64,000 nt of DNA from Candidatus Saccharimonadia bacterium (GTDB lineage: Bacteria; Patescibacteriota; Saccharimonadia; UBA4664). The DNA is taken from contig DATKIP010000076.1 in NCBI GenBank assembly GCA_035544015.1, positions 64,299 to 128,298 on the forward strand, in the 5' to 3' direction. Position numbers and translations under genes: made by a program. Shown in pieces: positions 18,733 through 61,459 of the stretch (the stretch's first letter is position 1; every line of letters begins with the position of its first letter). The notes below the pieces were generated by a model. That model did no database searches and had not been told where the DNA came from. It saw only the letters and a list, made by a program, of their open reading frames with translations.

Positions 18733-18816
18733 TGGTAGTGCCTCCATTCGGTGGGGGTACATCAACAGTTGCCCATGGTACCACCACCTCTAACCTTTAG
18801 AAACTCCACAAAAGTG

Positions 18817-18845
18817 TTGACAATAATTCCAACCTGTGATAGGAT
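18817..18845 (+). promoter_or_regulatory. Sigma-70-like promoter (TTGACA-N17-TAGGAT)
   Basis: A consensus -35 element and a reasonable -10 with 17-bp spacing, in a ~550-bp low-GC non-coding stretch. Confidence 0.4.
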
Positions 18846-37050: not shown

Positions 37051-37067
37051 GACACGCCGCTCGCTCG

Positions 37068-38105: not shown

Positions 38106-38128
38106 CCATTTCAGTATATGATTCCCGT

Positions 38129-39807: not shown

Positions 39808-39859
39808 CATTTGTCATGCCCGTGAAATGTCAGTAAAATCAGTGCACCAACGGGCCTAC

Positions 39860-41310: not shown

Positions 41311-41328
41311 GCTACCATTTAAGCTAAC

Positions 41329-42423: not shown

Positions 42424-42460
42424 ACCGTAACCACGCGACGCTCGCTCCCCACTAAGCCCC

Positions 42461-42562
42461 ACTATTCCACTTCTCGGAATAGTCGCACAATATCATAAAA
42501 TTTAGGCTTAGCGAAGCCATAATTCGACATAAATCCTCAACTATTCCAGAAAATGGAATAGC
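42461..42562. repeat. Copy B of the ~103-bp hairpin-ended intergenic repeat (core inverted relative to copy A)
   Basis: Terminal palindromes ACTATTCC-ACTTCTC-GGAATAGT and ACTATTCC-AGAAAAT-GGAATAGC. It lies between the convergent pyrD and pyrC 3' ends. Confidence 0.6.
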
Positions 42563-42585
42563 TGTCATACGCGTATCCCGAAGCC

Positions 42586-43647: not shown

Positions 43648-43710
43648 TATAGCGCAATGGTCTGCCCCGCCGCCCGCCCCATGATCGGGACGGGCGGCGG
43701 AACGCTCCGG

Positions 43711-44451: not shown

Positions 44452-44691
44452 TGACGTTCCCCCGTCCGGTCGTGCATCTCGGCCTAGTGCCGAAATGCCG
44501 TCACGCGCTTGCACCCACTTTGCAGTTCGCCAAAATCTGCGCCGAGAGGCCCAAAATTCACGGTGAACTCCCAAATGGGAGACAAACCATAACTCAAAAG
44601 GGGGCTTCCGTCAAGATTCAGCCGGAAAGCAACGAACGAGATTGCGGGAGAGGTCGTCAGATGGCGGGGCCTCAAGTTATAATATGGTCAC

Positions 44692-45132
44692 ATGACCTAC
44701 AAAGTTCACACCATCGATCATATTGGAATAGTTGTTCACGACTTTGATGGAGCGAAAGCGTTTTTCGAAGATTTCGGTTTCATTACCCGGGGCGAGCAAT
44801 TCGAGGAAAGCGAGCTGCTAGACAAGGTAGTGGGGGTCAAAGGCGCTAAATCCCACATCGCCTTTATGGAGGCGCCCCACGCCCAGATAAACATCGAGCT
44901 TACCGAGTTTATTCATCCCATGACTCCATCCGTCGTAGAAGCTAATCACATCTATACGCAGGGTATACAACATATCTGCCTGGCGGTCGAAGACGTTGAT
45001 GGAATCATTGAATCTGTAAAACAAAAAGGCAGAGAACTCATAACGGACGTCATAAACTACCAAGATATCTATAAATTGTGCTATTTCCGTGGCCCTGATG
45101 GCATAATCATTGAGCTAGCAGAGAAGCTATAA
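44692..45132 (+). CDS. VOC family protein (glyoxalase/dioxygenase-like)
   Basis: Contains 'VHTIDHIGIVVHDFDGAKAFFEDFGF'. A TATAAT sits at ~44672 in a low-GC region. Confidence 0.55.
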   Translation: MTYKVHTIDHIGIVVHDFDGAKAFFEDFGFITRGEQFEESELLDKVVGVKGAKSHIAFMEAPHAQINIELTEFIHPMTPSVVEANHIYTQGIQHICLAVEDVDGIIESVKQKGRELITDVINYQDIYKLCYFRGPDGIIIELAEKL

Positions 45133-45155
45133 AAAAACAGGCTCAGGAGTCAAAC

Positions 45156-45470
45156 ATGCCTATTTATTATGAAGTCAAAATCAGCGCCGAAAATCAGGGT
45201 CAAGCCGATAAAATTGTGGATTCACTTCTCGAAAAGAAGTTAGTAACCGGCGGTCAATTCATCGTCGCGCCGGCACGGTTTCTCTGGAAGGGCAAAGTCG
45301 AGAACATGGACTACATCACTATTACTTCTTATACGACCGACAGGCACAAAGACGGGGTAATGGATGACGTTCGCAGAACCACGGCTGAAGATGTTCCTAT
45401 GATTACATTCGTTGCGCCCGACGACCTTAATCAAGAGCTTCGGGACTGGATAGATAAAACGCTCGCATAG
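45156..45470 (+). CDS. CutA-like divalent-cation tolerance protein
   Basis: Contains 'AENQGQADKIVDSLLEKKLVTGGQF...FLWKGKVE'. The 104-aa protein follows the CutA1 pattern. Confidence 0.5.
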   Translation: MPIYYEVKISAENQGQADKIVDSLLEKKLVTGGQFIVAPARFLWKGKVENMDYITITSYTTDRHKDGVMDDVRRTTAEDVPMITFVAPDDLNQELRDWIDKTLA

Positions 45471-45731
45471 CCGTAATTGTTTGGTATTTGTACGGTAAAT
45501 CAGATATAATAGTGATGGTGCAATTGTCTCGGAGTTCCAGCACCTGGCCACCAGCAGAATATCAAGATATCACAACTGGTTAACCTAATTATAGGATCTG
45601 CGCTATTTTCAAACAAGCAATAAGTGCAATGGTAGGCCAGACGTCCCAAATGTGGAACACTTTGTGGCCAAGTTTGATCAAGATGAGCGAGCGGCTTGAA
45701 GAGCTAGGCATCGGCGAGGAGGAGGGGAGCC

Positions 45732-46214
45732 ATGTTTAATCTCTTCCGCCGCCGCACCAATCCGGCCGCCATCCTCACTTCCAAACTGTACGACGAAAGC
45801 CGTTTCTACGCCGCCCTCACTAACGACTTAAAGCGCGTCAAACGCGAAGTCGTCATCGAGAGCCCCTACCTCACCTGCAAACGCACCAGCGAGCTTCTGC
45901 CGCTCCTATCGAAGCTCGTCCGCCAAGGCGTGAGGGTGCGCATTAATACCCGCAACCCCAACCACCACGAAGAGTACATGCGCATCCAAGCCTGGATGGC
46001 CCTCAAGCAGCTCCGCGCCGCCGGCGTCAAGGTCAGAACCTGCGACGACTACCGCCACCGCAAACTCGCCATCATCGACGGCGCCATCCTCTGGGAGGGC
46101 AGCCTCAACATCCTCTCCCAAAACAACAGCCGCGAAATTATGCGCCGCACCCAGTCCGAAGAACTCTGCCGGCAGATGATCCAGTTCACCGGCCTCAACA
46201 AATGGGCGTGGTGA
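45732..46214 (+). CDS. Single-HKD phospholipase-D-superfamily nuclease (Nuc-like)
   Basis: Carries a canonical HxKx4Dx6GSxN motif, 'HRKLAIIDGAILWEGSLN', in a 160-aa protein. The gene is high-GC inside a low-GC patch. Confidence 0.6.
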   Translation: MFNLFRRRTNPAAILTSKLYDESRFYAALTNDLKRVKREVVIESPYLTCKRTSELLPLLSKLVRQGVRVRINTRNPNHHEEYMRIQAWMALKQLRAAGVKVRTCDDYRHRKLAIIDGAILWEGSLNILSQNNSREIMRRTQSEELCRQMIQFTGLNKWAW

Positions 46215-46221
46215 TATACTC

Positions 46222-46440
46222 ATGACTAATATGCACGACTACAAAATCACCGAAAAAGACATCGACGCCATGGTCAACTACCTGCGCATCTTCCACCCCG
46301 AAAACGCCAACCGGGAATACGCTGTCGAGCTCTTCAAATACCTCAAAGCCACTGCACGCCGTATGGCATTTACCGACCCCGAGGCGCTCAACAAAATTTA
46401 TGATGATTACGAAAGTTCTAAGAAAGGAAGCAGGCCATGA
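46222..46440 (+). CDS. Small hypothetical protein (72 aa)
   Basis: An ORF 8 nt downstream of the Nuc-like gene, with no recognisable motif. Confidence 0.3.
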   Translation: MTNMHDYKITEKDIDAMVNYLRIFHPENANREYAVELFKYLKATARRMAFTDPEALNKIYDDYESSKKGSRP

Positions 46441-46564
46441 CTCAAGCGAAAAATCAGCCCGGCGCCCAATAGACTCATGCGCGACAGCCATACGGCAGGA
46501 TAAAGCCATGGATAAGTCCAAGCCCAGGCGGTAAAATCTGAGACACACTATCTGGAAGGATTGG

Positions 46565-47407
46565 TTGATGAAGCTGTTTTTCTCTTGGCAATCCGACTCG
46601 CCCGGCAACCGCAATCTGCTTGAGCAGGCCCTCAAAGACGTGGGCAAGGACATACCGGACTTTGAGATTGATACTGCCACTCGTCTGGCGGTAGGTTCGC
46701 GCGACATTGGGGCTATGATCCTTGAGAAGATTGACGGTGCTGACTTTATGCTGGCCGACGTCACCATCCTCGACCCCGATGCCGTCCGCCCAACACCAAA
46801 CCCCAATGTCATCTACGAGGCGGGATACGCTATGAAGGCTCTCGGTGAAGGTAGAGTAATTTTTGTCGCTGACCGTCGCTCGACCACTACCGCCAACCTC
46901 CCTTTCGACATTCGTAACCGCCTGATGATCTTGGCTGACTTTTCAAAGCCCGAAGCAGCGCGTAAAGAAGTGGCGGCGGTCATTAAGACCGTCACCGCCA
47001 ACTACACCCCAGCCGACCCAAACGCCGGCGCACCAAAGATTACCCTGGTTAAAGATACTGAAGCTAGATGGGCCTCAAATTATTCGGATTATGGAGCTGC
47101 GTTTGAGGTGAAGTTTATTATTGATAATGACGGTGGCGGACTGACCTATGTCACTAACGCCCAACTCGTTGGCACCAACGGGGACGGCTCCCCGTTCGTC
47201 ACCGATAGCTTCCGTTTTGCTGACGACGAAATTGACCATCCATACGGAGTAATGGAGGGTGCTATGGAGCAAGTGACGCTTTTTCTTGGGGCGGATCGCA
47301 GCCACCATCGCCAAATGCCCGATCTGGATCGCGATACAGTAGAGCTAGTGGTAACATTCCGGGGCGGCAGAATCGTCCGGGTTCCAGTTCGCATTGTCCA
47401 AAGCTAG
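46565..47407 (+). CDS. TIR-like (DUF1863/MTH538-type) N-terminal domain protein with unknown beta-rich C-terminal domain
   Basis: Starts 'KLFFSWQSDSPGN', followed by 'ADVTILD' and 'VIYEAGYAMKALGEGRVIFV', resembling bacterial TIR-like nucleotide-binding folds. Confidence 0.4.
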   Translation: MMKLFFSWQSDSPGNRNLLEQALKDVGKDIPDFEIDTATRLAVGSRDIGAMILEKIDGADFMLADVTILDPDAVRPTPNPNVIYEAGYAMKALGEGRVIFVADRRSTTTANLPFDIRNRLMILADFSKPEAARKEVAAVIKTVTANYTPADPNAGAPKITLVKDTEARWASNYSDYGAAFEVKFIIDNDGGGLTYVTNAQLVGTNGDGSPFVTDSFRFADDEIDHPYGVMEGAMEQVTLFLGADRSHHRQMPDLDRDTVELVVTFRGGRIVRVPVRIVQS

Positions 47408-47419
47408 TTAGGAGCGAAT

Positions 47420-47905
47420 ATGCCCACAGATCAGATCAAGATTCATGATTTCTCATACACGCTCTACCGATGGGCCTACGACTATCACAATTCCGTAAAC
47501 GACCTCCTCGATAAGCACCCCGGCCTGGCAATGTTTGCAGTAAAGTACAACAACGCCTGCCTCGCCTTTGAGTTAATCATTAAGAGCCATATTGCACACA
47601 AGAACCACGCATCAACACCGGAGGCGCTCGATAAAGTTATGAGAGGCTATGGCCATAGCCTTGTCAGGCTTGCTCGATATGCCGTGGAAGAGATTGGGCT
47701 GTATCTGCCCGATGAGGACTGGAAAAAACTAGAACTAGTTGATAAATACTATGCAACCCACCAATTTCGCTATCCCCCGTATGAACCACGCAAATCAGAT
47801 CTCAACCATATAGAGCTATTGGCTGCAATCAATGAACTTAGGTTTATCACGGCAACGATGCTGGTAGTAGCCCACGAACAAACTGATGGATACGCCATAT
47901 CTTAG
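47420..47905 (+). CDS. Hypothetical protein (possible HEPN-like helical protein)
   Basis: A 161-aa low-GC ORF lying 12 nt after the previous gene. The HEPN suggestion is weak, since no clear Rx4-6H motif is present. Confidence 0.3.
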   Translation: MPTDQIKIHDFSYTLYRWAYDYHNSVNDLLDKHPGLAMFAVKYNNACLAFELIIKSHIAHKNHASTPEALDKVMRGYGHSLVRLARYAVEEIGLYLPDEDWKKLELVDKYYATHQFRYPPYEPRKSDLNHIELLAAINELRFITATMLVVAHEQTDGYAIS

Positions 47906-47940
47906 AAGCCACGGAAGTAAAAAGGACTTAGAATAGGGTC

Positions 47941-48597
47941 ATGCAGACCAATACTCTCGACGCCTTCCTCGATAGGTATATCAGTGGCTACCTACTGGAC
48001 GATATCGAGTCTATACAGTCCAAGATCCCCGTTAGTGACGAGGGGAATGGAGCTTACTTAGTGACTGGCGCAATATGCTCAGGTATTGAGCTACTTGGTA
48101 CTCTCCTACAGGAGCATAAAGAATCGGGCGCGTTCCCCTTCGACCATTATTGTGCTCACTATCTATCCGAGGTTGATGAACGATATAAAGCCTTAGGTGT
48201 TTTTGGGCGTCAGCTCATTCGTAATGGCATTGCTCATACATTCTCGACAAAGGGCCTAATCGCCGTCACGCGCCAGGGAAGCCGAGAAAATACTCACCTT
48301 GTACGGTACTCCAAGTCTGAACTTTTGGTCATTAACGCCAACTACCTGCATGAAGACTTCCAAGCCGCGTACACTGAACATGCCCTGCCGAAGCTGGTAA
48401 TGGGAGGGGAGCTGCGTGACCGTGCGGAAGAGAACTACGAGCGCCTGAAGAACAAATACGCTGGCGAAATCGAGGAAGCCAGAAACCAGGCCAAAAATAA
48501 GCTCAAGTCCTGGCCCTGGCGTCATGCCGAACTTGAGCCTTGGGATGGGATGACTGAGATGATCGAATATAATGGCGAAGGATTCGGCGTTAGCTAA
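47941..48597 (+). CDS. HEPN-like protein (Rx4H motif 'RNGIAH')
   Basis: 'GRQLIRNGIAHTFS' fits the HEPN catalytic motif as seen in Abi/Swt1-type RNases. Confidence 0.4.
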   Translation: MQTNTLDAFLDRYISGYLLDDIESIQSKIPVSDEGNGAYLVTGAICSGIELLGTLLQEHKESGAFPFDHYCAHYLSEVDERYKALGVFGRQLIRNGIAHTFSTKGLIAVTRQGSRENTHLVRYSKSELLVINANYLHEDFQAAYTEHALPKLVMGGELRDRAEENYERLKNKYAGEIEEARNQAKNKLKSWPWRHAELEPWDGMTEMIEYNGEGFGVS

Positions 48598-48636
48598 TTC
48601 GCCTCTGACTCAATTCAAATAGCAAAGGTCTGGCCT

Positions 48637-49872
48637 ATGGAATCACTATTCGGCAAGAAAATGGAAGACTTAGAATTTCAGGATGTCGTGGATTTTTGCG
48701 ACAAGCAGTATAAGGAGGGGATATTTCTTGATTACAAGCAAGACCTAAGCGGTAAAAAGTCGCTTGTTAAGACGATATGCTCATTCGCAAATACCGTAGG
48801 CGGGTGGCTAATCATCGGAGTGGAGGACGAGAGCGACAAGCCTAAGCCTCCATATAATGGTATTGAATATAATCCTCAGATTGCCTCTGCCATTCCCAAT
48901 ATGATTGTTGATAGTGTTTGGCCTTACATACGACCGATAGTCCAAGTTTGCGGCCCCAATGCCGACAATAAAGCTTTCATTGCGGTTTATGTTCCAGAGA
49001 GTGACGAGGCTCCCCACTGGACAGCCGATAAGTCCCATCTATACGTTAGGAGGAGCGACCGAAGCGACTCGACTGATTGGGAGCGCTATGCCACTGCTCA
49101 CGAGTGGGAGTGGCTGAGGAATAAGCGATTAAAGGCCGAGGATCAGAGAGAGCGGAGCGGCAGCACTCTGCAGGCTATTTATGCTCGTCTGCACAACAGG
49201 GAATATCCAATAGTGGCCGGCGGCGGAACTACGGCCAACGACGGGCGAATGCGAGTGTTTGTCTCACCATTTTTCCCTAGCACTCAGCTTTTCTCAGGCG
49301 CAGAAGCGTATAACGCCCTATACGATCAACGCGTAAATACAGCAAGTGATGGCGCATTCCCTACTTATCTTCCAAGCAGGATGATATTTGATGAAGGTGC
49401 ATATACGCATGGCGTAGAACGGCTAACCTCAACAACTCATGAGTCGTTTCTCGGCCTAGAGAACTTTGGTGGCATCTTGGCGAATAAGGATATTTTACGG
49501 AGCGGCGGGCACGGCGAAAGACACATCATCTTTCATGAGTTCATGAACCGGCTTGAAGACACCCTAGAATTCGCTGCAAATGTATATAAGAGCAAGAATT
49601 ATCTCGGACTTGCCTGCCTTGAAGTGGGGATTAGTGTTCCGGTAGATTCGCGAATAGTGTTCAGAGGGGCAATTGGCTCAGGTTTAAATAGCACTGAGAA
49701 AGTTAATGTACGAGGGTCATTTGAAGCGTCGCTGAGACTGGATAACGAAGAGCTTTCCAGTAAGCCCAAACGATATGAGTTGATGAAAGAGATCGCCACA
49801 TCGTTACTGCATTCCTATGGCTACGCCGAGATACCTGGCGGTACGATCGAAGAAGCGTTCCAGAGACAGTAG
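48637..49872 (+). CDS. Schlafen/AlbA_2 (divergent AAA-associated DNA-binding) domain protein
   Basis: 'LEFQDVVDF...LVKTICSFANTVGGWLIIGVED' is the AlbA_2 signature. The ~250-aa C-terminal region is unassigned. Confidence 0.55.
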   Translation: MESLFGKKMEDLEFQDVVDFCDKQYKEGIFLDYKQDLSGKKSLVKTICSFANTVGGWLIIGVEDESDKPKPPYNGIEYNPQIASAIPNMIVDSVWPYIRPIVQVCGPNADNKAFIAVYVPESDEAPHWTADKSHLYVRRSDRSDSTDWERYATAHEWEWLRNKRLKAEDQRERSGSTLQAIYARLHNREYPIVAGGGTTANDGRMRVFVSPFFPSTQLFSGAEAYNALYDQRVNTASDGAFPTYLPSRMIFDEGAYTHGVERLTSTTHESFLGLENFGGILANKDILRSGGHGERHIIFHEFMNRLEDTLEFAANVYKSKNYLGLACLEVGISVPVDSRIVFRGAIGSGLNSTEKVNVRGSFEASLRLDNEELSSKPKRYELMKEIATSLLHSYGYAEIPGGTIEEAFQRQ

Positions 49873-49930
49873 CTCGCGAGCGCTCAGAGTGCACTATTGG
49901 CTCCGTTCATAACACGACAGGTAAAATGTA

Positions 49931-50581
49931 ATGCCAACAATCTACGACATATTGCCCTCTCTTGAAGATAGAATCCTGAGCCTGCTCCATGACTTCATGG
50001 CGGAGGATGGAGGGGCATTTCATACTTGGGAAGTAGCGGTGCTATTGCCCGGATCAAACGGGTTCGTACATTTCATGGCTGGCGTTAATTTATCACTCAA
50101 GAATGGCAATTATGTTTCCTCGATGGCAAATCTACGTGGCATGATCGAAGTACTAGGCGCTGTTGTTTATGACGGAACTGCCAGTCTGCCCAAGGAGGGG
50201 TACGACCGATTCCTTAAAACTGGGCGCTTGCCCAAATGGGATGAGGAAGCACAAAAGTGGATTGATTTGGGGCCACGCGAATCGGTGAAGTATGCACAAA
50301 TGGTTGTCGATGCAAAGACTAATCTCAAGAAAATTTACGATGACTGCTGTGACTTGCTGCACTTCTCATCGATCCATATGAGCTTTATGGGCGGCTTTGA
50401 GCAGCAGGGAAGCTTAGTGGAGAGGCTTGCCAAAATAAAAATCGGCTCTAAAGATCAGATTCCTATCAAGCTGCAACGCGACATGATCGATTTATGCGCT
50501 GAACTCGCAACTGGGCTAGGGAAGTGCATTACGCTAGGCATTGAGGAAAAGAAGAAGCGGAATACGCCTAAGCCCTCATGA
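49931..50581 (+). CDS. Hypothetical protein
   Basis: A 216-aa low-GC ORF with no motif recognised. Confidence 0.3.
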   Translation: MPTIYDILPSLEDRILSLLHDFMAEDGGAFHTWEVAVLLPGSNGFVHFMAGVNLSLKNGNYVSSMANLRGMIEVLGAVVYDGTASLPKEGYDRFLKTGRLPKWDEEAQKWIDLGPRESVKYAQMVVDAKTNLKKIYDDCCDLLHFSSIHMSFMGGFEQQGSLVERLAKIKIGSKDQIPIKLQRDMIDLCAELATGLGKCITLGIEEKKKRNTPKPS

Positions 50582-50666
50582 TACGCTTTTTGGACGGCCC
50601 GTTAGTCCAATAACGGCAGAAGCAACTACATCTTTAATATCAATATTCAGCGAAGATTGAGGCAAT

Positions 50667-51665: not shown

Positions 51666-51760
51666 CTGGTATTCATGCCAATTCCGGCAGGACATTCTGC
51701 CCAGTAATTGCATGACAGCTGTTCAGACCCCCATCCACGCGCTCCTGCCAATCAAGAGGG

Positions 51761-53176: not shown

Positions 53177-53332
53177 GTAATCTCTCCGTAGTTAGTGATG
53201 AGCACTATATATGAGAGTGGCAATAAGATTGCTTTCTGAAAGCTTATTCCATACCATGAGCTGTACACTCACAAAAAATGTGTTGTGGTTATGCTTTAAT
53301 GCCCAGCTAAACTTACCTACTGGAATAAACAC

Positions 53333-55903
53333 TTGGCCGCCCTCCTGTCACGCCTATTCGGCGACACCCCATACGACATTGCCATTAATAGCCTTCTTCT
53401 CCTCACCATGGGTTATTTCGCCTGGCGCTGGCTATTTGAGCCCGCGCTAGATGTCCTGGCGGGTCTATGGGCATACCAGAGATCACAAAGCCGGCCAGCT
53501 TCGTATCTGGAAATTACGCCACCCACACACAATGAAAAATCATCGCTGGCCACGCAACAACTTATCACCGTACTGCGGCAATACCTAGGCAAAAACGAGA
53601 GTGTCTCGTTGGAACTAGTCTCATCGCGCAAAGAGGGCATCCGCTATCTTATCCGAACCAGCCCAGACAACGTACCAATCTTGCAGCGCCATGTGGCGTC
53701 ATATCTACCAGAATCACGGTTCCGTATCCTAAATGACGCCCCGCCGCTATCTGATTCAAATGATACCACCTACCACTACGTGCATGAGATAAAACAAGCC
53801 CGCCATTACGCCTATCCGCTCCAGCCCCAAACTGATCTCAACCAAAGCGACCCCGTCGCTTTTATCGCGGGCTCTATGACAAACCTCCAACCAGGCGAAT
53901 CAATCGCCCTACAACTGATAATCACGCCCTACGATTCATACTGGATGCGCCGGCTCTACAACAAAATCCTGAATAAAGGCTATACCATTATCGATCACAA
54001 GCTCCGCCACTTCATCATGAAGCACTGGTGGGTTTGGTGCATCGCCCTCCTTATCGCTTATTACACGCATGACCTAGAGCTGGCGGGGTCGTGGGCCCTC
54101 GTGCTGCTTGTTGTCTCAATGTTCTTTATCAAACGCGAAGAGCCAGCCCTCACGGTGGGAGAACAACAACTATTCGATGGTATTCGAGAAAAACTTGGGC
54201 AGCCACTATTTAGGGTAAATCTCCGAATCTCGCTAACCGCCAATTCGGTCGCCAGGTTAAGTGAACTATCCGGAGGCATGGAAAGTTCACTTGCACCACT
54301 AAACGCCCCTTTCCAGCACCTCAGATCATCACAAGACTATTTCGGACGATTAGGACAAAGATTTGAGGGACACAAATTTCAACACCGACTCCCAGGACTA
54401 CTGGTGGTAAATACCAATATATTTGCCGCATCCGAGCTAGCCGATGTTTATCACTTCCCATACGGCACCATCACCACCGAAAACCTAGTCCGGTCACATA
54501 GCCGCACCCTACCCGCTCCGCTATCGCTGAAAAGTGATGCTAAATATGACATCGTCATCGGCCACAATCATCATCATGGCAGCACTACCGAGATTGGTCT
54601 CACCGCTGCCGATCGCCAGCGCCACGTCTACATCATCGGTGGTACCGGCAATGGTAAAACTACCCTGCTCACGCGCGCCATGATCGCCGATCTCCAAAAC
54701 GGCCAGAGCTTTGCCTTCATCGACCCGCACGGCGACGCCGCCGAAATGCTCCTACGGCACGTTCCAGAAGAGCGCCTAAGCGACGTCATTTATTTCAACC
54801 CCGACGACCTCGCGCGGCCCATCGGCCTTAATCTCCTCGAACTCCCCGAAGGCCTCGTCGGCGACGACCTCCTGCGCGAAAAAGACCTTGTCACCGAAGC
54901 CACCATCTCTGTCTTCCGCAAGATTTTCTCCGAAGAAGACGAGGGCGGTCACCGCATCGAATATGTACTCCGTAACGCCATTCAAACCGCCCTCACCCAG
55001 CCCGGCGCCACTCTCTTCACCGTCTTCGATCTCCTCAATGACCCGGCCTATCGCAAGCAGGTCGTGTCCAAGCTCCAAGACAAGGACCTCATCAATTTCT
55101 GGAAGCATGAGCTCGGCAAAGCCGGCGACTTCCAGCGCGTCAAAATGGCCGCCGGCATTACCGCCAAGATCGGCCGTTTCCTATTCTCGGCCTCGGCCAA
55201 GCGCATCATCGAGCAACCCAAATCAACCATAAATTTCGACGACGTTCTAAGCTCCGGCAAAATCCTCATCTGCAACTTTTCTAAAGGCCTGCTCGGCGAA
55301 GACACCTCGGAGCTCTTTGGCATCATGATCCTGGCCAAAATTCAGCTAGCCGCCCTCCGCCGCGCCCGGCTGCCCATCGATCAACGCTCGCCGTACCACC
55401 TCTATGTCGATGAGTTCCAAAACTTCGCCACCGCCTCATTCGTTCAAATGCTGTCGGAGGCCCGTAAATATCAGCTCTTTATGACCCTCGCCGAGCAGTC
55501 CACCTCCCAGCAAAAAGACCAGCGTATGGTCCAGATAATTCTCGCCAACGTCGGCACCGTCATCTGTTTCCGTACCGGTAACCCCGCCGACGAAAAGCTT
55601 TTGCTCCCATTCTTTAGTCCGTACATCGAGCCGGGCGAAATCACCAATCTACCAGCCTACAACTTCTACATGCGCATCGCCGGGGCCACCACCCAAGAGC
55701 CCTTCTCTGGCCAAACCATCCCGCCAACCGAAGAGGGGAGTGATGATATCGCCCGCCGCCTCATCGAGCATTCCCGTCAAACCTATGGCAAGACGCACGC
55801 TCCGGCCCAAGCCCCCAAAACCAGCAGCGAGACTAACAACCCTCAAATCAAAAGCGCCACCCCGCTTCGCCGGCCAGTCAAGAAACACAAGATCACCCAA
55901 TGA
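53333..55903 (+). CDS. Type IV coupling protein-like ATPase (VirD4/TraD/TraG family)
   Basis: N-terminal TM helices; Walker A 'GGTGNGKTT'; Walker B 'LYVDEFQNF'. At 856 aa it is next to a relaxation-type protein. Confidence 0.55.
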   Translation: MAALLSRLFGDTPYDIAINSLLLLTMGYFAWRWLFEPALDVLAGLWAYQRSQSRPASYLEITPPTHNEKSSLATQQLITVLRQYLGKNESVSLELVSSRKEGIRYLIRTSPDNVPILQRHVASYLPESRFRILNDAPPLSDSNDTTYHYVHEIKQARHYAYPLQPQTDLNQSDPVAFIAGSMTNLQPGESIALQLIITPYDSYWMRRLYNKILNKGYTIIDHKLRHFIMKHWWVWCIALLIAYYTHDLELAGSWALVLLVVSMFFIKREEPALTVGEQQLFDGIREKLGQPLFRVNLRISLTANSVARLSELSGGMESSLAPLNAPFQHLRSSQDYFGRLGQRFEGHKFQHRLPGLLVVNTNIFAASELADVYHFPYGTITTENLVRSHSRTLPAPLSLKSDAKYDIVIGHNHHHGSTTEIGLTAADRQRHVYIIGGTGNGKTTLLTRAMIADLQNGQSFAFIDPHGDAAEMLLRHVPEERLSDVIYFNPDDLARPIGLNLLELPEGLVGDDLLREKDLVTEATISVFRKIFSEEDEGGHRIEYVLRNAIQTALTQPGATLFTVFDLLNDPAYRKQVVSKLQDKDLINFWKHELGKAGDFQRVKMAAGITAKIGRFLFSASAKRIIEQPKSTINFDDVLSSGKILICNFSKGLLGEDTSELFGIMILAKIQLAALRRARLPIDQRSPYHLYVDEFQNFATASFVQMLSEARKYQLFMTLAEQSTSQQKDQRMVQIILANVGTVICFRTGNPADEKLLLPFFSPYIEPGEITNLPAYNFYMRIAGATTQEPFSGQTIPPTEEGSDDIARRLIEHSRQTYGKTHAPAQAPKTSSETNNPQIKSATPLRRPVKKHKITQ

Positions 55904-55956
55904 ATAAATCGTATTATTCATCCAAAGTTACATTTCCAGATACAAGCAGGTAAATT

Positions 55957-56829
55957 TTGTCTCTCCCCTATATACATATGTATATGGAGACGCCCATCAT
56001 GATTAAAACTCCAACTACCAAACAACAACTCGCTATCCTCACCCTCATCTACCGCTTTCGATTTGTCAGCACAAAGCACATCCAGCAAGCCTTAGGGATT
56101 AAGTATCTTAGCAGTGTCCAGCCAAGACTCAATAGGCTCGTAGAACTTGGCCTTATCGGCCGAAACTATAATGGTTCCCTAAGGCTTGCTGGGCTTCCAG
56201 CTTCGTACTATCTACAACCAAAAGGCATGCATGCGCTCAAGGCTATCGACTCCGACGTCAGCAAAGCCGCACTCCACAATGCATACAAAGACAAGACCGC
56301 TTCGGAGCAATTCATCCAGCACTGCTTGGCTATCGCCGATGTCAGTCACGAGCTCACTGAATGCTTTGGCGTCAGAGTTGAATTCTTCACCAAAAGTGAA
56401 TCCAAAGAGTACGATTACTTCCCGCAGCCGTTACCTGACGGCTACCTCACTATCGCCGGCGCATCAACCAAAGACGACGACTCCAATCAATATTTTTTAG
56501 AAGTCTGCGACAAACCAACGCCAATGTTTGCGCATAAGAAGCGTATCCAAGAACTGATCGACTATGCCGAAGGGGGAGAATGGGAGGCCGCCACCGGCAC
56601 TGAGATGCCAACAATATTGTTTGTATGTGAGTCGCCGGATATCCAGCGCAAACTAATGAAGCTCATAGAAATAGCGCTTGAGGATTCATACGAAGATGAG
56701 CTCAAGGTAGAAGCGATTCTGAAGAGCCAAATCTGCGCCATCCTCGACCCAAAGAAGAGCCCGGAAGCCACCAAAGCAGCTCCCGGGCCCCCTCTAGCTA
56801 ATCCTCGTCAGCCAATCTCACCGACATAA
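55957..56829 (+). CDS. Replication-relaxation family protein (Replic_Relax, plasmid/ICE-associated)
   Basis: N-terminal wHTH 'QLAILTLIYRFRFVSTKHIQQALGI...LNRLVELGLIG', typical of Replic_Relax proteins. Confidence 0.5.
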   Translation: MSLPYIHMYMETPIMIKTPTTKQQLAILTLIYRFRFVSTKHIQQALGIKYLSSVQPRLNRLVELGLIGRNYNGSLRLAGLPASYYLQPKGMHALKAIDSDVSKAALHNAYKDKTASEQFIQHCLAIADVSHELTECFGVRVEFFTKSESKEYDYFPQPLPDGYLTIAGASTKDDDSNQYFLEVCDKPTPMFAHKKRIQELIDYAEGGEWEAATGTEMPTILFVCESPDIQRKLMKLIEIALEDSYEDELKVEAILKSQICAILDPKKSPEATKAAPGPPLANPRQPISPT

Positions 56830-57142
56830 CTCGTACGCAATCCGGCGATAAGGGATCTTCCCAATCACGCAGCCTCCAGTCGTAGTAGTCGATACTCCAG
56901 CGAACCTTATGAAACACCATATTACTTAGCCACATGACATGACCGAAATCATGCCGGTGAAACGGATCAAGACCTGCGATCCAGTTTTCGTACTCACGTA
57001 TCTCTTGAATCAACCCTGGCAGGTTGTATAGATGCCAGACATTCCGCGTACACATTATCAACCCCTTCTTGGACCTGCGAAACTCATCATTCGCCGCCGC
57101 GATCCTCTCGGACAATGCTTTTTCCACTAATAACTCTTCCAT
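56798..57142 (-). CDS. Hypothetical protein
   Basis: A 114-aa ORF rich in Trp/His. No motif recognised. Confidence 0.3.
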   Translation of the reverse strand: MEELLVEKALSERIAAANDEFRRSKKGLIMCTRNVWHLYNLPGLIQEIREYENWIAGLDPFHRHDFGHVMWLSNMVFHKVRWSIDYYDWRLRDWEDPLSPDCVRVMSVRLADED

Positions 57143-57403
57143 CTCAAACCTCCTCGTAAAGTTATCTTTGAACCTTCGAGCGTATCGACCTCCCGCTCTG
57201 TCGACCGGGCAAGGTCAGAACTGGACGCGTCAAGGTGGAGCACCCCACGCGCTGAACGACCTTGGGGCGGCCAGTTATGGCCTTATGATGGCAAGACAGA
57301 GGGAGGGCTAACCTCTTACAGCCCTAAGGTCATAAAGTTTAATTCATTGTTGCCGCAGAGCTTGTATTATGAAGCCATAAGCAACTTAAACGAGCCCCTC
57401 GCT

Positions 57404-58381
57404 ATGAATCTAAAAATCGGTACCTTCAACCTCAACAACCTCTTTTCTCGCTTCAATTTTGAATTCCGCACAGAAGTGCCCGATCTCAAAGAAGGCAGCG
57501 TGGAGTTCAAGAAAGTGCAGAAGCTCGTCAGCGGCATGAATGAGGCCTCGGTGGAGTACGAAGGCGTCGCTCTCAAGCGCAAAGACCCGGCTGCGCGTCA
57601 GGCCGTGGTCCGCCGTATTGAAGAAATGGACCTCGATATCCTAGCCGTTCAGGAAGTAGAGGACATCGAAACCCTGCGCTTCTTCGTCAACCATGAGCTA
57701 GACACCAAGGGCATGTACCCCCACCTTATTCTGGTTGAAGGTAACGACCCCCGCCTCATCGACCTCGCCGTCTTGTCCAAGTACCCCATCGGCGCCGTTA
57801 CCACCTGGCAGCACGCCACCCACCCCGACAGTCCCGGCGAGCGCGTCTTTAGTCGTGATTTGCTCCAGGTCGAAGTCTTGAGTAAAAATCGCGATAAACG
57901 ACTCTGCACCATATTTAACAATCACCTCAAGAGTCACTTTGTCCGCTTCCCGGAAGACCAGACGGAAGGCGCGAAGAAAGCCAACCGCCGGCGCCAACAA
58001 CAAGCTGAAGTGATGGCCAAAATCATTGCCAAAGAAATGGACTCAGATGACCGCTTCGTCGTAGTGGGGGACATGAACGATCCGGTTGACTCGGAATTTC
58101 TAAAGCCTTTCACTCACAGCCCCCGAGTCAAGCTTATTAATGGGCTTGAGCACCCGACCGAAACCCGCCCCACACCCGAAAGTTCCTCGCCGCCGCCCGG
58201 CCCCGCCTGGACCCACCGCTTCAAGGAATCCGGCAAGCCTGCGCACTATGAGCTATTCGACCAGATTTGGCTGAGCGCCGCACTGGCCAAAGACCAAACC
58301 GGCGCCTTCATTGACCGCCGCACCAAGCTTGGTGGCGACGGCTCCGACCACGACCCGGCGTGGGTAGAGATAGCAATATAG
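57404..58381 (+). CDS. Endonuclease/exonuclease/phosphatase (EEP, DNase I-like) family protein
   Basis: Contains 'LKIGTFNLNNLF', 'ILAVQEVED' and the C-terminal 'GSDHDPAWVEI' catalytic His/Asp. Confidence 0.6.
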   Translation: MNLKIGTFNLNNLFSRFNFEFRTEVPDLKEGSVEFKKVQKLVSGMNEASVEYEGVALKRKDPAARQAVVRRIEEMDLDILAVQEVEDIETLRFFVNHELDTKGMYPHLILVEGNDPRLIDLAVLSKYPIGAVTTWQHATHPDSPGERVFSRDLLQVEVLSKNRDKRLCTIFNNHLKSHFVRFPEDQTEGAKKANRRRQQQAEVMAKIIAKEMDSDDRFVVVGDMNDPVDSEFLKPFTHSPRVKLINGLEHPTETRPTPESSSPPPGPAWTHRFKESGKPAHYELFDQIWLSAALAKDQTGAFIDRRTKLGGDGSDHDPAWVEIAI

Positions 58382-58554
58382 CCTAGTTGCGGACCGCCTT
58401 GAGCCCTAATCAGTAACTCCCATTTGTACTCAATAGGTTTTGAGTGCAGCAGATTGGGCGCTTGCCGTAGCTAAGCATCAAGCCTTGTAAACTAACCAGT
58501 TTTATGTTATTATAGTGGCGCTCAAATCGAGCATTTGACAACCCGGGAGATATC

Positions 58555-59181
58555 GTGACGCAAGGACTACGCAAGTGGCTCGGCCGCTGGTTCGCCCAGT
58601 ACGTCATGGGCGACTCGCCGCCGGCACCCCACAAGTCGTGGAGCTCCCTCAAGGCGGAGCTCGACAAGAAGTATGGTGGGTGGGACCGGCAGCATCCGTC
58701 CGCAAAACGCGCTCACTACCACCGAATGGAACGGGACTTCAACGACGAGACCAAGCAGATCGAGTGGTGCTTCAACAAGATGGGCGCTCTCCTGACCGCC
58801 ATCGGCATAGTCCTCACGGTCGCCAGCGTGATCGTCGCCGTCGCCCCAAGCCGACTGCATCGGATCAACCTGTGGACAGTGCTCGCCGGAGCTCTGCTCG
58901 TGGCGGCCTTCCTGCTGGATGGCTGGGGACTGTCGGCCCGCGGCAAGATCTATCGCAAACTCAAGGACCCTGGCCTAGCCGCAATGGTCGTCATGGCCGG
59001 CGATGTTGTCGCTGGCGAAGAGACAGTCCTCACTGACCCCATCGACGCCGACACCTACCACCTCTACAAATGGGTGTGGCACCGGAGCCGCATGCACAAC
59101 GCTATCGAGAAGCTGTTCACGGGTTCGTGGATCACTCTCGCTGGCGCAGTCGTACTGGCCCTGATAGGTGCCCTCGCCTAG
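58555..59181 (+). CDS. Membrane protein, function unknown (GTG start)
   Basis: Two or three TM segments; a GGGAGA RBS precedes the start. Confidence 0.35.
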   Translation: MTQGLRKWLGRWFAQYVMGDSPPAPHKSWSSLKAELDKKYGGWDRQHPSAKRAHYHRMERDFNDETKQIEWCFNKMGALLTAIGIVLTVASVIVAVAPSRLHRINLWTVLAGALLVAAFLLDGWGLSARGKIYRKLKDPGLAAMVVMAGDVVAGEETVLTDPIDADTYHLYKWVWHRSRMHNAIEKLFTGSWITLAGAVVLALIGALA

Positions 59182-59217
59182 GCGATCCCTCCCGGGTTCA
59201 CCGCACATAGTGCGGCA

Positions 59218-59308
59218 GCCCGTCCCCGCCGGCCTCCGAGCCGGACGGGGACGGGCACCCCAGCAATTATCCAATATAAAAAGACCCGGGCGATCCGGGT
59301 CTTTTTAA
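59218..59308. terminator. Tandem GC hairpin plus classic bidirectional rho-independent terminator (AAAAAGACCCGG-gcgat-CCGGGTCTTTTT)
   Basis: The structure is seen directly, between the convergent genes 58555..59181 (+) and 59326..60747 (-). Confidence 0.65.
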
Positions 59309-59325
59309 TGACCAGAGCAGATCGG

Positions 59326-60747
59326 CTATGGATTCCTAGAAGCACGCGACCCCGCGCCTTTCTGGTAGATACCGCTACTCTCCATCCTAAAATCAAAGTT
59401 CCGCACAAACTCGGGCACCGAATCATCATTCTCCCGAAACGGAATAGTGAGTCGTAGGTTGGGATGGAGTGTTCCCCTTAGCGTAAGTTTTTGGTCGGGG
59501 CGCTTGGAGCCGTTCTCAATCGGCACAGAGTCAATGTAGAGTTTTTCGTTCTCGGAATATATCTTTATCGCTTCGACCTTATTGAGCCTTGCTGGGTCAT
59601 ATGCGTGAGCTGGCGTCGGTTCCGGCGGCCTTAAGGTGCCCTTTTTAACTCGTTGCTCAACCAATTTCTTGAGCGCATCTTCTCCTTCATAAGCCCGCAA
59701 TCTGCCGGTCAAGTAGCCGAGCCGGTAGTAAACGCCGTCGTTCGTCAGCCGCCAGTTGCTCTCTTCTAACGTTTTAGTGATGAGTTTTCGCAAACTATTC
59801 TTGCTATCGTACTCTTGACGATCCGGCTTGGCATCAAGGCAGTTAAAGTCGACTACCACCTCCTTCCCGAGCTGGGGATCACCAAGTTTGAATTCGGTAT
59901 ATTGAGCCTTTTCAAGCACGGGTCGCAATGCTTCTATGAGCTGTGCGATCTTGAGCTGCTTTATGTCTTTGACTGCATCATATATATCCGCATGCTCGGT
60001 GCGTTCGGTAGCGTCTGCATAAAGCTTGCCTAAGCGCATCATGTGCTCAATCTTATCTTCAAGTTTGCGCATGGTGTCTTCATCGATGCAGAAGCGCTTG
60101 TAGTCCAGTTCATACAATGGGTCGGCGACCTCTTTCTCGGTTGATCTTTCCCTAAGATCAAGCGTTTCTTGATAGGTATGGTTGCATTCAATACAGGCAT
60201 ACGTTGAAATCAGCACGTTATTGGACTCTTTGTGAGTAATGGTCATTTCAGCTCGGCACTTCTCGCAATAAATCTTCACGCCTTCCCACTCAGCACCGTC
60301 TTCCCAATAGGTTTGCCGTTTGCTGCACGGCTCACAGGCTAAAATAAAAATCACGTCCTCACTATGGCGGTCTTTGCCCTCGCGGTGCATGTAGTATTTA
60401 TCCATGACTTCCATATTTCGGCCACAGCTACGGCAGAACGGCATTTTAGGTAGGTGAGCGTCGGCTAGATGGCGATCCTTCTGTCCGTCTCGTTCCATCC
60501 ATTCGGCAATAATTTTGTCGCGGCGATGATAGCGACTGGCCGCCGTGAATTCGACGAATTGCAGATAGTATTTGCTGTATTCTAGATACCAGGCAACCGG
60601 GCGCTCCTTGAACTCCGCAGCAGGGACTGTTTCCTCCAGTTTACGGAAGGTATCATTAAGGATACCTTCACCAGAACGGCACTGTTCGACAGTAGCGTGG
60701 TCGTAGAGGTCTTCGTAATGCTGACGATCTTCGAGGTAGGTGAGCAT
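59326..60747 (-). CDS. Zinc-ribbon-containing hypothetical protein (four CxxC pairs)
   Basis: Contains 'CRSCGRN', 'CEPCSK', 'CEKCRAE' and 'CIECNH'. 473 aa; no family recognised. Confidence 0.35.
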   Translation of the reverse strand: MLTYLEDRQHYEDLYDHATVEQCRSGEGILNDTFRKLEETVPAAEFKERPVAWYLEYSKYYLQFVEFTAASRYHRRDKIIAEWMERDGQKDRHLADAHLPKMPFCRSCGRNMEVMDKYYMHREGKDRHSEDVIFILACEPCSKRQTYWEDGAEWEGVKIYCEKCRAEMTITHKESNNVLISTYACIECNHTYQETLDLRERSTEKEVADPLYELDYKRFCIDEDTMRKLEDKIEHMMRLGKLYADATERTEHADIYDAVKDIKQLKIAQLIEALRPVLEKAQYTEFKLGDPQLGKEVVVDFNCLDAKPDRQEYDSKNSLRKLITKTLEESNWRLTNDGVYYRLGYLTGRLRAYEGEDALKKLVEQRVKKGTLRPPEPTPAHAYDPARLNKVEAIKIYSENEKLYIDSVPIENGSKRPDQKLTLRGTLHPNLRLTIPFRENDDSVPEFVRNFDFRMESSGIYQKGAGSRASRNP

Positions 60748-60922
60748 GATTATATTTTACAAATAATTTGCTTAGTTTTAGAGGCCACCTAGCTGGCTGG
60801 TCGGGGTCGTCAGGCAGTCCGTTTTTCGTATCGGAACCCACAGCTTTGGCCCCCTTCTTGTTATTTTTCTCACCCTCGCCACCCCTAGTGCTGACTGGTT
60901 TTACCTCAGACTCGGGCGCAAC

Positions 60923-61201
60923 GTGCTCCTTGGCATAATTTACTATCAGATGGCAGAATTTGACGAACGCGAGAACCAGAACCCTACCAGATATAAAAAA
61001 CTAGGCTACCAAATGAAACTTAAGGCTACCGAACTGGTAGTAAGAGAATTTGCTAAAAATGCTGATGTCATCAAGGCACTCGAAATACTGTCTGCTAGCG
61101 ACGCCTGCGTAAAATGCAGACCGATCAGCCGCGCTGAGATCAGCATTCATGAAGCTAAGGGAAAACGACCCGTACCCGTCGAAGATTGCCTCAATCCGTG
61201 A
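60923..61201 (+). CDS. Hypothetical small protein
   Basis: A 92-aa ORF. A GGGTGC-AGAT-GCACCC hairpin follows its stop codon. Confidence 0.25.
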   Translation: MLLGIIYYQMAEFDERENQNPTRYKKLGYQMKLKATELVVREFAKNADVIKALEILSASDACVKCRPISRAEISIHEAKGKRPVPVEDCLNP

Positions 61202-61459
61202 GGGTGCAGATGCACCCACACTCCAGTTGTAGCCTGAAATCGAGCCTAAGTGTCTGTGGAAAAACAAAAGGTAGGCGTTAAATAAAGGGTTAAGGATCAC
61301 ATTTAATTAGTCATTTATCCAAAAGCGGAAACTAGCACCTACCAGGTACCCTATCAAGAGCTTCAAATTAGAAAATTGCCTTATTGTGTGCAAAACGACA
61401 AACATCTTAAACTTATATTAAGTGGCCAATTTTGGCTCTAATAAGGAGGGTGTGGTATA

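Follow-up and report, generated by a model that had tools for sequence, protein, structure and literature searches.

The stretch of DNA considered here, 64,000 nucleotides from a Candidatus Saccharimonadia bacterium (contig DATKIP010000076.1; hereafter the window), carries from ~44.69 kb onwards an island of low guanine-plus-cytosine (GC) content that we read as a probable integrative mobilizable element (IME). Its core consists of a large serine recombinase, an ATPase resembling type IV coupling proteins (T4CPs), a Replic_Relax protein and a DUF3768 protein (Table 1); a block of small genes lies to the left of this core, and a nuclease-like gene and a long RHS/PA14 gene that runs out of the window lie to the right. 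The sequence was extended beyond the window by finding the exact XRE regulator of the island among its homologs, which gave access to window-equivalent position 80,618; positions above 64,000 are extrapolated by adding 60390 to the coordinate on the corresponding contig (L087). The source is a 320,396-bp metagenome contig in ENA, of which 80 kb was read and whose record coordinates equal window positions plus 64298. In the extension, the RHS/PA14 gene is completed and followed by several further genes, the last of which encodes a second large serine recombinase with an open reading frame (ORF) ending inside a host tRNA-Glu(UUC) gene.

An earlier reading of the window, made from its letters and ORFs without database searches (the sequence-only reading), had described an integrated mobile element of 16.9 kb ending at 61450. 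Its left edge, ~44.58 kb, was correct to within about 100 bp. The right end was wrong, because ORFs had been read in a window that ends mid-gene: the 2355-aa RHS/PA14 gene starts at 61459 and exits the window, and low GC continues to ~73.99 kb. The island measures 29.3 kb, with its final 10 kb past the end of the window, and the features missed accordingly were the tRNA target, the putative RHS toxin, the second recombinase and the genes for RadC and a helix-turn-helix (HTH) regulator. The drop in GC content seen in that reading is real: the mean over 1-kb windows is 0.593 +/- 0.044 for the host part (1-44 kb) and 0.522 +/- 0.039 for the island (Mann-Whitney test, p = 6e-8), with 0.62 in the host DNA immediately to the left and a return to 0.59-0.63 at 74.0 kb on the right. 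The mosaic was likewise recovered gene by gene, with most cargo genes at 0.45-0.54, the T4CP-like ATPase at 0.542, the PLD gene at 0.596 (0.83 at third codon positions) and the membrane protein gene at 58555-59181 at 0.627, in support of the stepwise history that had been proposed.

Insertion at the 3' end of tRNA-Glu(UUC)

The contig is a chromosome of a high-GC Candidatus Saccharimonadia bacterium. In one scan of a genome collection, the closest relatives of its PyrC protein were found in metagenome-assembled genomes (MAGs) of Saccharimonadales/Saccharibacteria (best 76%, in L007), and two island proteins carry the NCBI name 'Candidatus Saccharimonadia bacterium'. L007, the closest GTDB relative, is collinear with the contig on both sides of the island: its positions 10001-19304 correspond to window positions 43641-35046, and its positions 6244-3029 to 74132-77500. 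The gap between these syntenic blocks spans 3.8 kb in L007 vs 30.5 kb here, and a tRNA-Glu(UUC) gene lies in each gap, oriented alike. In L007 this tRNA gene lies between pyrC and a flippase gene followed by glycosyltransferase genes of families 2 (GT2) and 4 (GT4), and nothing island-like stands beside it, so that the comparison with relatives proposed by the sequence-only reading does yield an empty site. A transfer across phyla, in which a Saccharibacteria-type element would sit in a high-GC host from outside the candidate phyla radiation (CPR), was also considered and is ruled out by the Saccharimonadales PyrC and by synteny.

A second relative, L168, whose ATPase is 68% identical, has at this locus a related element of smaller size, with the same backbone and other cargo. 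In this single 10.5-kb unit, T4CP and Replic_Relax are followed by four cargo genes, two small genes (68 and 47 aa) and a recombinase of 571 aa (RES571; 74% identical to the 569-aa recombinase of the island, RES569), after which come tRNA-Glu(UUC), flippase and GT2. In both elements the recombinase ORF overlaps the tRNA gene by 41 nt; here its stop lies at 74033, and its final 41 nt are antisense to the 3' part of tRNA-Glu. Such an antisense overlap, of 41-84 nt, was found for the tRNA-proximal recombinase in 12 of 13 related elements, the exception having a tRNA-Gln gene 77 nt from the recombinase. Eleven tRNA genes with different anticodons are hit in this way: Glu-UUC (twice), Glu-CUC, Phe, Arg, Gly-CCC, Gly-GCC, Lys, Asp, Ile, Met and Leu.

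The position of the exchange can be narrowed further. The bases of the acceptor stem co-vary between the 5' and 3' strands, both here and in L168; an exact strain junction lies between positions 3863 and 3864 of L003, with a shared side that starts ATGGTGACCC; and no tRNA remnant occurs anywhere in the island, tRNA being the sole match in Rfam scans. Taken together, they locate the exchange at the CCA end or directly beside it, and not inside the tRNA. The 3' end of this tRNA-Glu(UUC) gene of the host is the insertion site of the element. The 3' ends of tRNA genes are the usual targets of tyrosine integrases, and serine integrases that aim at them, with an ORF that crosses the junction, are unusual for this enzyme family.

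The left junction is placeable only within 44,452-44,692. The hexamer TATGGT (44,683-44,688) is common to it and to the right junction, and the left crossover most likely fell near this hexamer, a placement for which statistical support is weak. An inverted-repeat partner of the right-end P arm was matched at chance level only. The comparison of the left flank with the 3' flank of the L007 tRNA gives a 26-nt match (at a distance of 87 vs 90 nt) that is equaled in 74 of 500 shuffles, and is a hint only. The short direct repeats that the sequence-only reading had suggested looking for at the ends are absent, as expected for serine recombinases. As a side observation, the shared side of the junction that separates L003/L005 from L004 starts ATGGTGACCCTACGGG and looks like a tRNA 3' end, with no tRNA called there by ARAGORN; the left end of an element may imitate its tRNA target, which would permit elements to stack in tandem.

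The conserved backbone and its relatives

Both recombinases belong to the large serine type, and their catalytic Ser motifs can be read straight from the sequence. The 471-aa enzyme in the middle of the island, recognized as a large serine recombinase in the sequence-only reading, passes the Pfam gathering thresholds for Resolvase and Recombinase, with a Zn_ribbon_recom match just under the cutoff (24.4 vs 25.3 bits), and is 50-53% identical to recombinases of L006, L003 and L169. The 569-aa enzyme next to the tRNA also exceeds the Pfam cutoffs for Resolvase and Recombinase and has a weak zinc ribbon. Three clades of such recombinases (A, B and C) can be distinguished, with a mutual identity of only 20-25%; the mid-island enzyme belongs to clade A, members of which never adjoin a tRNA, and the tRNA-proximal one to clade B.

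The coupling-type ATPase called in the sequence-only reading exceeds the Pfam cutoffs for TraG-D_C (25.4/22 bits), TrwB_AAD_bind (24.4/20.5) and T4SS-DNA_transf (21.0/20.1). Its N-terminal part is a DUF8128 membrane module of ~350 residues, taken from the precomputed annotation of the contig, in which the membrane anchor is embedded, an unusual arrangement; a transmembrane (TM) segment spans residues 222-243, and further hydrophobic helices were modeled at 1-28 and 198-220. The ATPase part has a Walker A motif (GGTGNGKT at 411), a Walker B motif (LYVDE at 665) and an all-alpha insert at 485-615 that is helical in the model. In an AlphaFold2 (AF2) model built with 32 homologs (mean pLDDT 78), the ATPase half is closest in fold to TrwB by TM-score (0.63-0.66), and Cag-beta and DotL also match. 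There are 1718 homologs, with Saccharimonadales names, and a search of 1.84 billion cluster representatives with the DUF8128 module alone retrieves 327 of them at E <= 1e-3. PHROG 5156, a family of unknown function, is matched along almost the entire protein (E = 1e-54), and proteins of the same architecture are thus also present in sequences classed as phage. We consider the ATPase T4CP-like; membership in VirD4 proper is not established.

Downstream of the ATPase gene lies the Replic_Relax (PF13814) gene, also called correctly before, whose product scores well above the Pfam cutoff and probably combines an N-terminal winged HTH with a C-terminal restriction-endonuclease-like domain. A PLPDAY...YFLE motif is conserved in the alignment, and 36 of 36 homologs belong to PF13814. 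This family constitutes the MobC class of CONJscan (Coluzzi et al., 2017; PMC5357655, Table 1) and falls within the PD-(D/E)XK superfamily (PMC3424549). A PDB profile search with the protein returned winged HTH regulators only, at E >= 0.01, and a weak match links it to PHROG 2190 ('replication initiation').

The same genes recur in relatives. Contexts of ATPase homologs and 80 metagenome loci were surveyed by tblastn, blastp and family hidden Markov models (HMMs). The recurrent backbone comprises a tRNA-proximal serine recombinase of clade B (544-596 aa) or C (518-542 aa) with a small gene just upstream, the DUF8128 ATPase, Replic_Relax and either DUF3768 or DUF2958; many elements add a clade A recombinase (471-481 aa), RadC, a 146-aa protein and an XRE regulator, and compact members of ~6 kb consist of tRNA, recombinase, T4CP, Replic_Relax and DUF2958. 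Between the backbone genes, cargo is freely swapped: L003 carries Shedu (SduA_C) and type I restriction-modification; L006 carries Mrr, a candidate type III-like restriction-modification system and Hachiman; L169 carries ABC-3C (DUF2326 and MC6) and a long metabolic/toxin set; L188 carries Kiwa and an MmeI-type (IIL) restriction-modification system; and L003/L004 carry a reverse transcriptase. The boundary of the L004 element lies 2.1 kb past the clade A recombinase gene, and L169 is arranged alike; since these relatives hold cargo outside the clade A gene, the block at 44.7-51.7 kb is placed inside the element here. L003/L005 and L004 have identical ATPases on 1.2-Mb contigs that differ by one whole tandem element, a difference that points to recent mobility. 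The family, which belongs to Saccharimonadia/Patescibacteria, is apparently undescribed, none of its elements having been found in the searched literature.

Two further observations concern the wider distribution of the ATPase. Its distant relatives (28-32% identity) are often encoded by two adjacent paralogous genes with neither Replic_Relax nor recombinase nearby (L130, L135, L139, L148, L155, L157, L131, L145 and L161), and these loci may represent a different system built on the same ATPase. In addition, a PLD/Nuc-like gene of 150-190 aa, 40-47% identical to the PLD protein of the island (tblastn, HMM), lies 0.2-3 kb downstream of the T4CP gene in eight other loci (L092, L096, L097, L098, L104, L109, L113 and L114). 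The PLD gene accompanies the DUF8128 ATPase even where Replic_Relax and recombinase were not detected within 10 kb, which hints at a functional link between the two.

Proposed mobilization and its alternatives

The sequence-only reading had described the island as an integrated conjugative or mobilizable element. The part that stands is an integrated mobile element with a mobilization backbone, made of recombinase, T4CP-like ATPase and Replic_Relax, and variable cargo. With moderate confidence, we consider it an IME at tRNA-Glu(UUC) and not an integrative and conjugative element (ICE), and we infer its transfer from this gene content. Integration and excision would be the work of the tRNA-proximal serine recombinase, which would exchange strands at the tRNA's CCA end with a 2-bp stagger and leave no repeat; the predicted attP would link ...AAAGACTCTATGGT to the DNA on the right side of ~44,688. 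The Replic_Relax protein would then nick a putative origin of transfer (oriT), and the element's own coupling ATPase would deliver the relaxase-DNA complex to a type IV secretion system (T4SS) channel supplied in trans, the likely channel being the chromosomal MPF-FATA-like T4SS carried by most Saccharimonadia.

Similar arrangements are known from other mobile DNA. The MobB (T4CP-like)/MobC module of CloDF13 and TraX of pAD1 combine a MOBC-class relaxase of restriction-endonuclease fold with an own coupling ATPase, and they need a foreign pore. By analogy, the candidate mobilization module of the island resembles the CloDF13 MobB/MobC pair, with the differences that CloDF13 and pAD1 are plasmids of Proteobacteria and Enterococcus, that sequence similarity is limited to the family level and that the island is integrative. 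Streptococcal IMEs with their own coupling protein also have an integrase at the element end, a coupling ATPase and a relaxase, and no pore; some use serine integrases, their cargo is modular and their integration modules have been replaced (Coluzzi et al., 2017; PMC5357655). In contrast, their coupling protein is TcpA/FtsK-like, whereas that of the island is VirD4/TrwB-like and fused to DUF8128; PF13814 accounts for only 2 of 154 relaxases in that study; and a Patescibacterium host, two serine recombinases and a tRNA 3'-end target are particular to the case described here. As regards integration, SCCmec (CcrA/CcrB), Tn4451/Tn5397 and the fdxN element (XisF) share the Resolvase-Recombinase-zinc ribbon organization, the catalytic Ser motif and the lack of flanking direct repeats, and the best NCBIfam similarities of the recombinases, both sub-threshold, are to CcrB and XisF. 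SCCmec likewise holds two recombinases in one element. Unlike in these elements, the targets here are tRNA 3' ends, an ORF crosses the junction, and the recombinase genes are non-adjacent and belong to clades only 21-23% identical.

Several observations weigh against a mobilizable element. The left junction is approximate and shows no att-like repeat or tRNA mimic; neither a direct repeat nor a tRNA remnant above chance was detected at the left end with exact k-mers, Smith-Waterman alignment with shuffles or Infernal (E <= 10). The exact island proteins occur on four contigs, all with the same neighbors and no empty site among them, and no excised form or attP was found in exact-protein look-ups or in an IMG/VR scan. 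The proposed mechanism assigns no role to the mid-element clade A recombinase. The ATPase fails the NCBIfam TraD/VirD4 equivalogs (<=43 bits vs cutoffs of 250-800, the best being 43 vs 366, over the P-loop region only). Its lowest Foldseek E-values are to TrwK/VirB4 (2e-15), not VirD4, because there the full two-domain length aligns, and HerA matches too. Of the loci with a T4CP of at least 33% identity, about half (12 of 25 and 10 of 25) show no Replic_Relax or recombinase less than 10 kb away, so either the ATPase is not exclusively element-borne or the readable flanks are too short. The relaxase call rests on Pfam membership: in Foldseek searches, the AF2 model of Replic_Relax (pLDDT 88) matched MarR/PadR-type winged HTH proteins, restriction enzymes and Shedu nucleases, all at E >= 2e-3, and the canonical PD-(D/E)XK Lys is not evident in the alignment. 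As for an oriT, the intergenic regions yield only short, unconvincing repeats. Finally, the T4CP homolog of Ca. Southlakia epibionticum is dispensable for epibiotic growth (Quinonero-Coronel et al., 2025; PMC12102498), a result that neither supports nor excludes a conjugative role.

Part of this evidence would also suit a more modest interpretation, in which the island moves by site-specific recombination only, or grew by static accretion at a tRNA hot spot, while ATPase and Replic_Relax form a non-conjugative translocase/nuclease pair serving defense, replication or circle maintenance, and spread occurs via natural transformation, for which Saccharibacteria are competent. The resemblance of the ATPase to HerA, its failure at every curated T4CP threshold, its PHROG 5156 match, the first annotation of PF13814 as 'replication-relaxation' together with the weak PHROG 2190 match, and the roughly one half of T4CP loci with no Replic_Relax or recombinase nearby, often with a PLD gene instead, all agree with such a pair, as does the finding that patescibacterial T4SS clusters are mostly without relaxases (PMC12102498). 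Nevertheless, a trio of T4CP, Replic_Relax and DUF3768/DUF2958 stands beside a tRNA-targeting integrase in many independent compact elements, which is standard IME anatomy, and TrwB is the closest fold by TM-score of a protein that passes Pfam with TrwB_AAD_bind and TraG-D_C; we therefore judge this interpretation rather improbable. It is likewise rather unlikely that the 29 kb comprise two or more tandem or nested elements or remnants, namely a compact recombinase-T4CP-Replic_Relax-DUF3768 element starting at 51.7 kb and an older one represented by the cargo at 44.7-51.7 kb and the RadC-HTH-...-RES569 end. Two recombinases of different clades, the mosaic GC content, the mid-island clade A gene placed beside the T4CP like the integrase of compact elements, the tandem arrays in L003/L005 and L169 and a RadC/HTH pair displaced relative to the L006-type order are all compatible with a composite. 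Conversely, elements that combine both clades and hold cargo beyond the clade A gene are recurrent (L003/L004, L006, L169 and L188), the L004 boundary lies beyond its clade A gene, L168 holds T4CP, Replic_Relax and RES571 as one unit at the same tRNA, and searches inside the island turned up neither a tRNA remnant nor an att-like repeat.

The remaining two explanations fare much worse. A self-transmissible ICE encoding its own mating pore would account for the T4CP-like ATPase, the relaxase-family protein and the integrases, and the 208-aa and 89-aa membrane proteins of the cargo have no assigned function. However, no VirB4, VirB6, VirB8, PrgI, TrsD-type or other pore family was matched by Pfam or NCBIfam in the scanned ORFs of the 29.3 kb (44.7-74.0 kb); the HMM check suggested by the sequence-only reading turned up a MobC-class protein above the Pfam threshold and none of the T4SS pore proteins, which leaves the mobilizable half of its proposal and does not support the conjugative one. 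Moreover, the compact relatives are too small for a pore, and although the ATPase resembles VirB4 in overall fold, one ATPase does not make a channel, so that an ICE is very improbable. A prophage, a phage satellite and an integrated phage-plasmid merit equally little credence. Matches to PHROG 95 (both recombinases) and to PHROG 5156 (the ATPase) speak for such an origin, as do distant relatives of the ATPase domain in IMG/VR; yet the same scanned ORFs contain no capsid, portal, terminase, tail or lysis gene (Pfam, PHROGs and NCBIfam), and the IMG/VR relatives, which are all that a search for circular or episomal copies returned, are <=42% identical and confined to the ATPase domain.

Cargo, flanking genes and significance

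The features of the island and its flanks are listed in Table 1, together with the tRNA overlaps of related loci.

Table 1. Features of the island, its flanks and tRNA overlaps in related loci (window positions unless a locus is named; those above 64,000 extrapolated; overlap rows give the position of the tRNA gene concerned)
Feature	Coordinates	Strand	Basis and remarks
pyrC, host	42586-43647	-	left of island
Peptidase_A4 (secreted), host flank	43711-44451	-	Pfam; final high-GC gene (0.675) before island
Left junction (attL), approximate	44600-44692		GC falls; fine GC profile and sequence
VOC/glyoxalase-fold protein	44692-45132	+	Pfam; left-arm cargo, GC 0.45-0.47
CutA1	45156-45470	+	Pfam; left-arm cargo, GC 0.45-0.47
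PLD/Nuc-like HKD protein, 160 aa	45732-46214	+	Pfam PLDc_2; weak PADLOC MkoC/DrmC
TIR-like domain protein (CAP12-PCTIR_TIR)	46568-47407	+	Pfam 24.7 bits, equal to cutoff; PADLOC TIR effector E = 1e-5
Two proteins, 161 aa and 218 aa	47420-48597	+	no Pfam, PADLOC or PHROG match
Schlafen/AlbA_2-domain protein, 411 aa	48637-49872	+	Pfam SLFN_AlbA_2 E = 2.9e-15
Two proteins, 216 aa and 332 aa	49931-51665	+	no family match
Large serine recombinase, clade A, 471 aa	51761-53176	-	Pfam; PHROG 95 integrase E = 2e-67; motif ARVSSKAQ
T4CP-like ATPase, 831 aa	53408-55903 (ORF from 53333)	+	Pfam; AF2 model; motifs
Replic_Relax (PF13814), candidate MOBC-class relaxase	55978-56829 (ORF from 55957)	+	Pfam 48.3 bits vs cutoff 25.3
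DUF3768 protein	56798-57142	-	Pfam; conserved neighbor of Replic_Relax; DUF2958 takes its place in other elements
EEP-family (Exo_endo_phos) nuclease or phosphatase	57404-58381 (ORF from 57347)	+	Pfam; NCBIfam ExeM/NucH sub-threshold
Membrane protein, 208 aa	58555-59181	+	GC 0.627; no family match
Multi-CxxC zinc-ribbon protein, 473 aa	59326-60747	-	at least 4 CxxC pairs; no significant family; exact on 4 contigs
RHS/YD-repeat protein with PA14, 2355 aa	61459-64000, to 68526 (L087 1069-8136)	+	RHS_repeat, TEN_YD-shell, PA14
Three-TM protein, 89 aa, candidate immunity gene	68821-69090	+	
199-aa protein	69092-69691	+	
RadC/JAB	69842-70279	-	Pfam E = 1.7e-35; intact, overlooked by gene caller
XRE HTH regulator	70391-70618	+	Pfam HTH_3
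HEAT-repeat protein	70819-71724	+	Pfam HEAT_2
Conserved 69-aa gene	71841-72050	+	
57-aa gene	72139-72312	+	
Second large serine recombinase, clade B, 569 aa	72324-74033	+	Pfam Resolvase and Recombinase; PHROG 95 E = 1e-37; motif IRVSTEKQ
tRNA-Glu(UUC), host, right junction (attR)	73993-74067	-	ARAGORN; Rfam tRNA 63 bits
Host flippase (polysaccharide), GT2, family 4 glycosyltransferase (GT4)	from 74123		right of tRNA-Glu
Recombinase-tRNA overlap, this element	L087 13603-13677		
Recombinase-tRNA overlap	L006 18632-18707		
Recombinase-tRNA overlap	L102 3006-3081		
Recombinase-tRNA overlap	L098 4145-4219		
Recombinase-tRNA overlap	L103 2642-2717		
Recombinase-tRNA overlap	L101 51-123		
Recombinase-tRNA overlap	L111 7741-7817		
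Recombinase-tRNA overlap	L106 2066-2142		
Recombinase-tRNA overlaps	L129 12271-12346 and 19656-19728		
Recombinase-tRNA overlap	L168 10716-10790		
Recombinase-tRNA overlap	L188 5590-5673		

The cargo of this copy, described as defense cargo in the sequence-only reading, fits that term only loosely. The EEP and Nuc-like HKD proteins called there were recovered, Exo_endo_phos and PLDc_2 both passing their Pfam thresholds, and an EEP homolog is also found in the cargo of L169; PLD, TIR-like and Schlafen/AlbA_2 proteins give weak single-domain matches to defense functions. PADLOC identified no complete system in the cargo, returning weak single-protein matches only (PLD to MkoC/DrmC, the TIR effector and PDC-S50). 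Seven cargo proteins are without known family. The sole match of the 473-aa protein is to DpnI, sub-threshold and over 60 residues. In the RHS/PA14 protein, the DPxG region (DPIDGG...PPDPVNNFDLSG) is followed by a glycine-rich TM tail, and the toxin domain has no family match; together with the 89-aa gene the protein looks like a polymorphic toxin with an immunity gene. The set is therefore better described as conflict cargo, probably serving anti-phage or anti-plasmid defense and competition between cells. Defense islands of ICEs and IMEs offer a parallel, as relatives of the element carry Shedu, Hachiman, Kiwa, restriction-modification types, ABC-3C and reverse transcriptase in fixed slots between backbone genes; this copy differs in that no complete known defense system was recognized in it and in carrying a putative RHS toxin.

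On the host side, the order leftward from the island is Peptidase_A4, pyrC, pyrD, pyrF, pyrE, a NUDIX gene and purD; the pyrimidine genes reported next to the island are thus present, and the direct abutment is not, since one Peptidase_A4 gene lies between. The genes pyrC, pyrD, pyrF, pyrE and purD occupy window positions 35000-43650 at ~62% GC, and both de novo nucleotide synthesis and such a GC content are atypical for CPR. After the Saccharimonadales MAGs, the next-best PyrC matches are in 70%-GC MAGs of Actinomycetota (L010, L011 and L017; 65-66%), the phylum to which the hosts of Saccharibacteria belong. The host part of the window also encodes two HisKA_7TM sensor kinases that are paralogs, at 13528-15870 (780 aa) and 34488-36650 (720 aa); the second kinase and its response regulator are in synteny with L007. 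Rightward of the island, GC falls again to 0.47 at extrapolated positions 78069-80618 (L087 17680-20228), over glycosyltransferase and sugar-epimerase genes, and low GC alone is therefore no safe marker of mobile DNA in this genome. Another low-GC patch (0.48) lies at window positions 4001-6000, beside a UvrA-like ABC ATPase paralog (2040-4331); an ORF within it (4347-5000, minus strand, 217 aa) has no Pfam match, and a further small insertion may lie here.

Patescibacteria (CPR) account for much of bacterial diversity, have genomes of ~1 Mb and live attached to other bacteria. The element carries candidate enzymes for integration, excision and DNA handover to a conjugation pore, in bacteria for which conjugation is considered close to absent. 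Most Patescibacteria, Saccharimonadia included, encode a chromosomal MPF-FATA-like T4SS (Quinonero-Coronel et al., 2025; PMC12102498), and this conserved system, essential for the attached lifestyle, is thought to be non-conjugative because relaxases are almost never found and T4CP genes lie far from virB4 (PMC12102498). The same study counted 5,713 T4CP homologs in 2,918 patescibacterial genomes, 148 of them near virB4, and 109 MOBscan relaxases, among which MOBC was the commonest (58) and 39 lay near t4cp; integrases are unmentioned and element structure was not examined there. Those T4CP homologs probably belong to the same protein family as the ATPase of the island, which is here part of the backbone of tRNA-integrated elements with a PF13814 neighbor. 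The family may explain the orphan T4CP genes of Patescibacteria as backbone genes of integrative elements with a MOBC-class candidate and tRNA-targeting integrases, and the anatomy of the element fits this gap, at the level of an inferred transfer. If this is correct, the question whether CPR bacteria conjugate could be put to a direct test in cultivable strains, the turnover of CPR defense repertoires would be explained, and the natural integrases with their tRNA 3'-end att sites would be available as genetic tools for a group that is very hard to manipulate.

A bolder proposal, possible and still doubtful, is that the patescibacterial T4SS has conjugative substrates, missing so far, in the form of these tRNA-integrated elements. 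Saccharibacteria would then conjugate and move a large family of serine-recombinase/T4CP/MOBC elements through the chromosomal MPF-FATA-like pore between epibionts, possibly also into or out of their actinobacterial hosts, as the main route of defense and toxin exchange. If this is true, the 'very different relaxases' that, according to Quinonero-Coronel et al. (2025), were still to be discovered would be the divergent PF13814 proteins.

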